The notes under the pieces: model-generated | Databases searched by the model: none | Seen by the model: only the letters and a program-made list of their open reading frames with translations | What the model was told of the DNA's origin: nothing | In this document: piece after piece, positions 1 through 312 of the stretch | Numbering within the stretch: the stretch's first letter is position 1 | How the letters are laid out: each line of letters starts with the position of its first letter | Assembly (NCBI RefSeq): GCF_003334255.1 | Contig: NZ_QOWU01000267.1 | Strand: one strand, 5' to 3' | Length of the DNA stretch: 312 nt | Source of the DNA: Escherichia coli | GTDB taxonomy: Bacteria > Pseudomonadota > Gammaproteobacteria > Enterobacterales > Enterobacteriaceae | Translations under genes and position numbers: made by a program

Positions 1-135
1 TACTGCTTCAGAAAGTTCAGCAAAATCCATCTGGTAAAGTTCCATCAGATAAGTCAGCACGATATTCTGGTGAACGCAACTGCCATACTTATCCGTCAGT
101 GTGATGGATTTACCAGTCAGCTCAATATCTGTCAC
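1..135 (-). CDS. 5' end of a protein-coding gene (3' part lies beyond the window's left edge); hypothetical protein, start codon uncertain
   Basis: Seen in sequence: the minus-strand frame with codons at 144..142 down to 3..1 is open for 48 codons after an in-frame TAG (147..145): F L A V T D I E L T G K S I T L T D K Y G S C V H Q N I V L T Y L M E L Y Q M D F A E L S E A V. The other two minus frames each contain several stops across 1..156. Candidate starts are GTG 135..133, GTG 60..58, ATG 45..43 and ATG 30..28; none has a strong Shine-Dalgarno (best is a GGA about 10 nt upstream of ATG 30..28). Codons are enterobacterial-like (CTG x5, GAT, GAA, AAA), whereas the same-phase plus-strand ORF uses rare codons (AGA, ATA x2, CTA, GGA) and is Cys/His-rich. 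The end coordinate assumes the most upstream candidate start, GTG at 135; no hydrophobic signal-peptide-like N-terminus is visible. Confidence 0.55.
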   Translation of the reverse strand, partial: MTDIELTGKSITLTDKYGSCVHQNIVLTYLMELYQMDFAELSEAV

Positions 136-149
136 TGCCAGAAACTACC

Positions 150-176
150 AAAAAAACGCCTGCACAAGGCAGGCGT
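150..176 (-). terminator. Rho-independent (intrinsic) transcription terminator oriented for minus-strand transcription
   Basis: Seen in sequence: on the minus strand, 5'-(A)CGCCTGC-CTTGT-GCAGGCG(T)-3' (stem 175..169 pairing with 163..157, 7 GC-rich bp plus an optional A176-U156 pair; 5-nt loop 168..164) followed immediately by TTTTTTT (156..150). On the plus strand the same hairpin is preceded by an A7 run and followed by tggtgtaaaaaggg, which is not U-rich, so it is essentially unidirectional. It lies about 33 nt downstream of the TGA stop of the upstream minus-strand CDS. Confidence 0.8.
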
Positions 177-208: not shown

Positions 209-312
209 TCAGTCCTGGTTAAGCGTACCATTACACTGCACCGGGACGTAATCCAGAGCCTGCAGCAACTGCTCATCTGTCAGATCCAGAAAATCTTTGA
301 TTTCCTCCAGAG
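209..312 (-). CDS. 3' end of a protein-coding gene (5' part lies beyond the window's right edge); hypothetical protein with acidic C-terminal tail ...LEEIKDFLDLTDEQLLQALDYVPVQCNGTLNQD*
   Basis: Seen in sequence: the reverse complement of 212..310 reads ctg gag gaa atc aaa gat ttt ctg gat ctg aca gat gag cag ttg ctg cag gct ctg gat tac gtc ccg gtg cag tgt aat ggt acg ctt aac cag gac, then TGA (plus-strand tca at 209..211). The other two minus frames hit stops within about 30-40 nt of the window edge. Codon usage is typical of highly used enterobacterial codons (CTG x6, GAT x4, CAG x4). The only competing frame (plus frame 1, 184..312) has no ATG, GTG or TTG start. An intrinsic terminator sits about 33 nt downstream of the stop on the same strand, as expected for a gene end. 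Confidence 0.7.
   Translation of the reverse strand, partial: LEEIKDFLDLTDEQLLQALDYVPVQCNGTLNQD

Follow-up and report, generated by a model that had tools for sequence, protein, structure and literature searches.

A probable rpnSs gene, with a likely start beyond a relic leader, in a tandemly duplicated rpn 3' cassette of an Escherichia coli conjugative element

What does the open frame of 48 codons at the edge of this locus encode, and where does its translation begin? The window, by which we mean the whole 312-nucleotide stretch of Escherichia coli DNA that was analysed (contig NZ_QOWU01000267.1), had been read in an earlier note, from its letters, as holding the N-terminal region of a second protein whose family was not recognised and whose initiation site was ambiguous. 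Translation of positions 144..1 on the minus strand gives FLAVTDIELTGKSITLTDKYGSCVHQNIVLTYLMELYQMDFAELSEAV, exactly as that note had written it, and the frame opens after a TAG in phase with it at 147-145. An open stretch of 48 codons at the edge of a window is not significant when taken alone, since (61/64)^48 is approximately 0.1. What makes the frame a real feature is its continuation into a long ORF, along with a DNA identity of 97% to part of the adjacent bona fide gene. Leftward extension, which the earlier note had proposed for obtaining the full ORF, gave 125 codons in the source genome, up to a TGA situated 231 nt past the left edge of the window. The window does contain the beginning of a second gene's ORF, for which RefSeq annotates a CDS of 122 aa from GTG 135-133.

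Candidate starts and genomic setting

The frame has exactly four canonical in-frame starts in the window, which were scored by their best anti-Shine-Dalgarno duplex energy with the 3' end of 16S rRNA:

133..135, minus strand: GTG start of the 122-aa RefSeq CDS WP_096955009.1 ('transposase'); -2.8 kcal/mol, no Shine-Dalgarno sequence
58..60, minus strand: GTG candidate, residue 26 of the 122-aa CDS; +0.2 kcal/mol, no Shine-Dalgarno sequence
43..45, minus strand: ATG candidate (MELYQ...), used as the start in some annotations (92/96 aa); +0.6 kcal/mol, no Shine-Dalgarno sequence
28..30, minus strand: ATG candidate (MDFAEL...), used as the start in some annotations (87/82 aa); -3.3 kcal/mol, at best a weak Shine-Dalgarno sequence

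In the 12-kb locus, an energy of -3 kcal/mol is attained at approximately half of all positions, and the earlier description of four starts with no strong ribosome-binding site for any of them was thus correct. The ambiguity that it saw in the initiation site is mirrored in the public annotations of the same or nearly identical ORFs, which use at least four start codons, give lengths of 122/126, 92/96, 87 and 66 aa, and name the product variously as 'transposase', 'hypothetical protein', 'RpnC/YadD family protein' or 'DUF433 domain-containing protein' in RefSeq.

The window is a 100% match to E. coli STEC2018-553 (NZ_CP075665.1), and the locus was found in 53 of 5,426 complete E. coli genomes, in all of which it is chromosomal; the phage and plasmid collections that were searched gave no match to it. 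It is placed between ssb and pilL in an integrating conjugative element (ICE) of the PFGI-1/SPI-7 type, in the company of topoisomerase III, TraD and several genes that RefSeq annotates as ICE proteins, and its gene order is ssb - rpnL - Ss - pilL, where Ss denotes the short copy to which the noted frame belongs. On the coding (minus) strand, the window runs from the 3' end of an rpn gene through a terminator into the ORF of the noted frame. Coordinates in this locus are given below as L001, and other loci are numbered likewise. The features of the window other than the candidate starts are as follows:

209..312, minus strand: 3' end of rpnL, comprising its last 34 codons and the TGA stop (211-209); RefSeq CDS WP_032308780.1, L001 5181-6104
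209..312, minus strand: C-terminal end of the internally initiated RpnS of rpnL, in codons common with rpnL
149..176, minus strand: intrinsic terminator of rpnL, from the terminator scan, RNA folding and repeat family D3
127..148, minus strand: junction at which unit 1 gives way to unit 2, from alignment A1 and comparison of the sequence after each terminator
1..126, minus strand: 5' part of the duplicated unit, read from 126 to 1 and matching RpnL codons 193-234, from direct repeat D1, codon-by-codon comparison and protein alignment A2

The product of rpnL has 307 aa and is named 'Rpn family recombination-promoting nuclease/putative transposase' in RefSeq. A Pfam scan placed the PF04754 nuclease domain over its residues 12-205 (E 2.2e-59), and the protein is collinear with the NCBIfam RpnA model at E 2.2e-61, under the equivalog cut-off. 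The rpnL terminator has an 8-bp stem with six G-C pairs and a 5-nt loop (176-156), followed by a run of seven T (155-149), and GTG 135-133 is situated 13 nt after this run. The terminator belongs to a repeated unit, and the terminator scan found it again after the duplicate (L001 6137-6157 and 6578-6598). The junction, which contains the in-frame TAG, is only weakly similar to the parental gene and recurs in L002, L003, L004, L005, L010, L017 and L018. A search of Rfam returned nothing near gathering scores, and the intergenic part holds no known RNA gene.

Two minor features of the window were also observed. On the plus strand, a GTG-started ORF of 37 aa (70-183) runs antisense across the terminator and the 5' part of the duplicated unit, with no homology or supporting signal. 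Within the RpnS coding region, at window 289-312 (minus strand, L001 5995-6024, and again at 6437-6466), an 11-bp inverted repeat, GAAAATCTTTGATTTCCTCCAGAGATTTTC, has a terminator-like score on the antisense strand in both copies, which is probably incidental to the coding sequence.

Tandem copies of the rpn 3' unit

The locus contains two head-to-tail copies (L001 5757-6166 and 6187-6607) that are 95-97% identical and have a period of 430-442 bp. Each unit runs from RpnL codon 193 to codon 307 and includes the stop codon, 3' UTR and terminator that follow, and the direct repeat D1 (L001 5757-5949 vs 6187-6379) is 97% identical; the unit that begins in the window extends left beyond position 1. 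The sole length difference in the coding part is 12 nt, where RpnL reads EEKG-RAEER and the copy EEKG-LEKG-RAEER, which gives the window copy a four-residue repeat number of n=1 versus n=0 in the adjacent RpnL.

Related elements differ in how many extra units they carry, with none in L006, one each in L001, L002, L003, L005 and L007, and two in L004. In L004, from E. coli SCU-171, two identical tandem short copies (2003-2383 and 2457-2837) follow the long rpn gene; they are annotated as 126 aa, and the 454-bp unit, including its terminator, thus occurs as three consecutive copies. A second junction class (L007, L011, L012 and L015) has a different terminator upstream and only 28 open codons ahead of the ATG that we favour as the start (see below). 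Since this class keeps only 28 codons before that ATG, and GTG 60-58 is missing from its Ss units, both GTG 135 and GTG 60 are dispensable. The ATGs at 45-43 and 30-28, for their part, are kept in frame in all short copies of both junction classes. One member of the second class, L007 (1-2150) from E. coli YZLc1-3, has its long rpn gene interrupted in the 5' part by an IS66-family element, ISCro1, and what is left of that gene is an N-terminally truncated CDS of 268 aa; the short copy downstream is intact.

The repeats, which are of the forms LEKG, RAEG and LAEG, number from zero to seven in long copies and one or two in short copies, and all changes in their number are multiples of 12 nt and so preserve the frame. 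In 4 of 6 loci, the repeat number of the long copy is not that of the short copy. Repeat number aside, the tail DNA of the window copy is the same as that of the long copies of L003 and L004, and such identity between tails in long and short positions indicates that alleles evidently move between the two positions. A different arrangement was seen in L002 (4425-5786) and L017 (5848 and 6289), where the short copy carries the tail allele ...RAEERKKALEATYASVRRMSDMGMSTEVIK... and the adjacent long gene ...RAEERSRLVLMMRQKGKSLEEIKDF...; in this lineage the repeat number is equal in the two copies, and a long gene with a type-A tail accompanies a type-B short copy. The differing tails point to exchange between divergent rpn alleles.

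The earlier note had named frame-disrupting indels among relatives as a result that would speak against coding in this frame. One such indel was found. In the NCTC9112 assembly (L005 2895-2905), a run of six G just before the short-copy ATG puts the upstream frame out of phase with the ORF of 66 aa, which alone is called there by PGAP ('DUF433 domain-containing protein'). An independent metagenome contig of the same haplotype (L018 673-683) has seven G at this position and is in frame, and the NCTC9112 deletion is thus probably a homopolymer sequencing error. The frame is otherwise open in every reliably sequenced copy of the window's junction class. We considered the NCTC9112 frameshift as proof that the upstream stretch is non-coding and rejected it, since the reading of G6 in place of G7 probably reflects an error in sequencing. 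A comparison of codon-level selection between the upstream stretch and the RpnS part had no power, as there are only a handful of differing sites and the alleles are common to long and short positions. The open frame upstream says little either way, because the copies are so recent.

Initiation, the predicted product and the alternatives

Where the short copy initiates is suggested by its likeness to the long genes. Mutation of the ribosome-binding site and start codon within rpnA (K240R, E241D, M244L) abolished production of RpnAS (Zhong et al. 2023, PMC10400941). In the present locus, the only start with a strong Shine-Dalgarno sequence is an ATG at L001:6346, 34 nt beyond window position 1, and its duplex energy of -11.8 kcal/mol is within the top 3% of positions, versus +0.6 to -3.3 kcal/mol for the four starts in the window. 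Alignment of orthologues, another check that the earlier note had proposed, revealed an invariant MTIAE.L motif that begins at M244 of RpnA, an internal Met of RpnE, M1 of YpaA, M246 of the ICE RpnL and residue 57 of the 122-aa ORF (alignment A2). The Shine-Dalgarno sequence falls in the same two codons before the ATG (K-E or K-G), as in RpnA K240/E241, and is spelled AAG GAG in rpnA, rpnE and ypaA and AAG GGG G in the ICE copies. Seven complete genomes supplied 14 long and short copies, and all 14 have the element AAGGGGGTGAT(C/T)ATG, one of them with a variant spelling; ten metagenome contigs have it too. Its exact form is absent from two copies only, and the Ss copies of one haplotype have a variant that still provides a G-rich Shine-Dalgarno sequence and the ATG. 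The 23-mer spanning the Shine-Dalgarno sequence and ATG had no match in a set of one genome per species, nor in the phage and plasmid collections. Counted from the favoured Met, the LEKG repeat starts at residue 12, inside the range of 8-20 residues after the initiating Met published for all RpnS, in which each repeat consists of one hydrophobic and three charged or Gly residues (PMC10400941).

These observations lead us to a reading that we regard as probable, in which the frame at 144..1 is the 5' end of a tandemly duplicated, ICE-borne rpn 3' cassette and the start of its rpnSs gene lies outside the window. In window 1-126, rpn codons 193-234 most likely survive as a relic that serves as a leader, and not as the N-terminus of a new protein. 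The product would be a 66-aa RpnS-type three-helix protein (MTIAEQLEEKGLEKGRAEER...) initiated at the ATG that lies 34 nt outside the left edge of the window, and the 48 codons in the window would be a parental coding relic in the 5' leader that is untranslated or only incidentally translated. The protein that the earlier note could not assign to a family can now be described as a copy, made by tandem duplication, of the C-terminal third of the Rpn protein encoded upstream, that is, as rpnSs, and the suggestion that the window holds its N-terminal region is probably wrong, given the homology and Shine-Dalgarno support for a start 34 nt beyond the left edge. That note had also argued that the choice of start decides whether the terminator hairpin lies in the leader or abuts the coding sequence. 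The hairpin was indeed found (176-156), and the favoured start puts it approximately 180 nt upstream of the coding sequence, so that the two would not abut.

Structure prediction is compatible with a short product. The AlphaFold model of the 66-aa protein has a pLDDT of 74 and helices at residues 3-29, 34-41 and 45-53, and its one long and two short helices agree with the published description of RpnAS. The model of the 122-aa ORF has a mean pLDDT of 60, with residues 1-18 under 50 and helices at residues 20-33 and 38-48. No transmembrane segment was predicted, in line with what the earlier note had gathered from the letters, and the product was modelled as all-helical. Fold searches returned generic helix-turn-helix domains and did not recover the RpnAS crystal structure, 7TH0, which a phmmer search of the PDB did not retrieve either. 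A Pfam scan of the 122-aa ORF detected neither PF04754 nor PF14261 (DUF4351), the best match being DUF433 at E 0.004, and NCBIfam gave sub-threshold matches to the C-terminal end of Rpn models, including TIGR01784. Searches of the PDB, PADLOC and Pfam with the short ORF found nothing significant. A HMMER scan with the 66-aa product matched only 10 proteins under E 1e-3, and so small a number would fit a domain that is hypervariable in sequence.

A strong terminator is situated upstream of the copy and counts against the favoured reading. Between the terminator and the favoured ATG, a promoter tool found no promoter, and the best sites in a relaxed sigma-70 scan matched at 8 of 12 positions, none convincingly. 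The only promoter-like site in the leader part of the window (59-86, L001 6227-6254) reads ATGGCA-16-TATCGT, also 8 of 12; it is common to the parental gene, is missing from the second junction class, and is too weak to call. By analogy with the K-12 rpn genes, for all of which an internal transcription start has been reported ahead of the internal start codon (PMC10400941), the relic leader possibly carries an internal promoter, and the duplicated unit could have brought it along.

An alternative to the favoured start is that RefSeq is right and that the copy encodes a longer RpnS isoform, of 122 aa from GTG 135-133 or of 92 or 87 aa from ATG 45-43 or 30-28, which would include the helices linking the nuclease domain to the tail and would make the window truly encode an N-terminus. 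That PGAP and other pipelines call starts in the window, that the frame is open from position 144 in every reliable sequence of this junction class, that two ATGs are held in frame in both classes, and that helices are predicted at 20-33 and 38-48 are all in keeping with such an isoform. We consider it unlikely, however, since the starts in the window have no Shine-Dalgarno sequence and a strong, conserved one precedes the downstream ATG; moreover, GTG 135 lies just behind the T-run in junction sequence that the second class does not have. The open frame itself could persist without selection in copies so recent, at 97% identity and with shared alleles, and the extra part has no detected Pfam domain and is modelled with a confidence below 50 for residues 1-18 and a mean of 60. 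Distinctly unlikely, in our judgement, is the possibility that the copy is a silent by-product of unequal recombination, a promoterless fragment behind a terminator that is unexpressed and in the course of being lost. In favour of such a remnant are the copy number of zero, one or two in related elements, which marks the copy as dispensable, and the mismatch in repeat number with the adjacent RpnL; the terminator directly upstream, the want of a good promoter match and the listing of its K-12 analogue, ypaA, as a pseudogene in RefSeq point in the same direction. Yet no short copy in either junction class, or with either tail allele, has lost the ORF of 61-70 aa or its Shine-Dalgarno sequence, and the changes in repeat number keep the frame. 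Tagged YpaA/RpnESs protein was detected in K-12 (PMC10400941), and the internal transcription starts of the K-12 genes offer a kind of promoter that the duplicated unit could have carried with it.

If the copy does encode a 66-aa RpnS-type protein from the downstream ATG, as we favour, the protein would by analogy with RpnAS, RpnBS and RpnCS dimerise via its long first helix, and would bind RpnL and block its DNA endonuclease, the toxin. In the case of RpnC, RpnL was neutralised only by RpnS of the same repeat number, and a mismatch abolished neutralisation (PMC10400941). The window copy has one four-residue repeat more than the adjacent RpnL, and in light of the RpnC experiment it may not neutralise that protein; its role may instead be that of an alternative allele of the C-terminal part, available for recombination into the long gene. 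A doubtful but conceivable extension of this idea is that the Ss units form a cassette system through which the RpnL toxin switches the C-terminal domain that determines its specificity. A complete alternative tail, in repeat number or allele, would be supplied by each unit along with its own 3' UTR and terminator and with approximately 160 nt that are homologous to the long gene. One recombination event joining a unit to that gene would create a new RpnL/RpnS pair, and unequal exchange would regenerate units. Such a system would fit the identical tail DNA in long and short positions of different strains, the loci (4 of 6) in which long and short repeat numbers differ, and the lineage that combines a type-A long tail with a type-B short copy.

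Relation to known Rpn proteins

RpnS binds and inhibits the toxic RpnL nuclease, and it is a three-helix bundle whose long first helix contains a strain-variable number of four-residue repeats (PMC10400941). It is also made from separate downstream genes termed rpnSs, such as ypaA (rpnESs) and rpnCSs, which originated in tandem duplications and can later disappear or become fused once more (PMC10400941). By its sequence, the ORF that begins in the window is a member of this published class (Zhong et al. 2023, PMC10400941). It is a separate gene downstream of its parental rpn, produced by tandem duplication, with 95-97% DNA identity to the 3' third of that gene; it has hypervariable four-residue repeats from residue 12 (n = 0-7 across the copies); and, as far as can be judged from the DNA, it has its own ribosome-binding site and a start equivalent to the internal start of rpn. 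The main value of this assignment is one of annotation, in that the ORF should be read as an rpnSs (Rpn small antitoxin) gene, probably of 66 aa, which places it in an ICE-borne Rpn toxin-antitoxin defence module.

Full-length Rpn/YhgA-like PD-(D/E)XK nucleases (PF04754, TIGR01784, COG5464) include the parent of the ORF, to whose codons 193-307 it is 97% identical in DNA. These proteins carry PF04754, whereas the ORF has no nuclease domain, and the RefSeq names 'transposase' and 'Rpn family nuclease' are misleading for it because that domain is absent. RpnAS shares with the window copy the start motif, the placement of the Shine-Dalgarno sequence and the insertion of repeats in helix 1, and the predicted architecture of the copy, a long first helix and two short ones, agrees with that of RpnAS, in which the long first helix forms the dimer interface (PDB 7TH0; PMC10400941). 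The two are 36% identical over 45 residues (pairwise E 8e-4). They differ in that RpnAS is encoded inside a long gene and the window copy is a gene of its own.

The closest parallels are RpnESs (YpaA) and RpnCSs, which like the window copy are encoded by small, separate, tandemly duplicated genes directly downstream of the parental rpn and start with MTIAE.L behind a strong Shine-Dalgarno sequence at the position of the internal start. YpaA and the window copy also each have one four-residue repeat more than their parent, although the tail of the window copy is only distantly related to that of RpnESs and RpnCSs. In K-12, ypaA (L009 5817-6002) is listed as a pseudogene by RefSeq despite the detection of the tagged protein by Zhong et al. 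2023. The duplication that gave rise to it starts only approximately 15 nt before the ATG, right after the rpnE stop codon, and includes neither a terminator nor a coding relic. Unlike the K-12 arrangement, the unit described here is 430-442 bp long and includes approximately 160 nt of upstream coding relic as well as the 3' UTR and terminator. It can be present as two tandem copies, and a conjugative element carries it as cargo. It thus adds to the rpnSs class a variant with a long duplication unit, a coding relic, a terminator of its own and a copy number of zero to two on a conjugative element, and this variant could be a convenient natural system in which to follow the exchange of repeat numbers and tail alleles between toxin and antitoxin copies.
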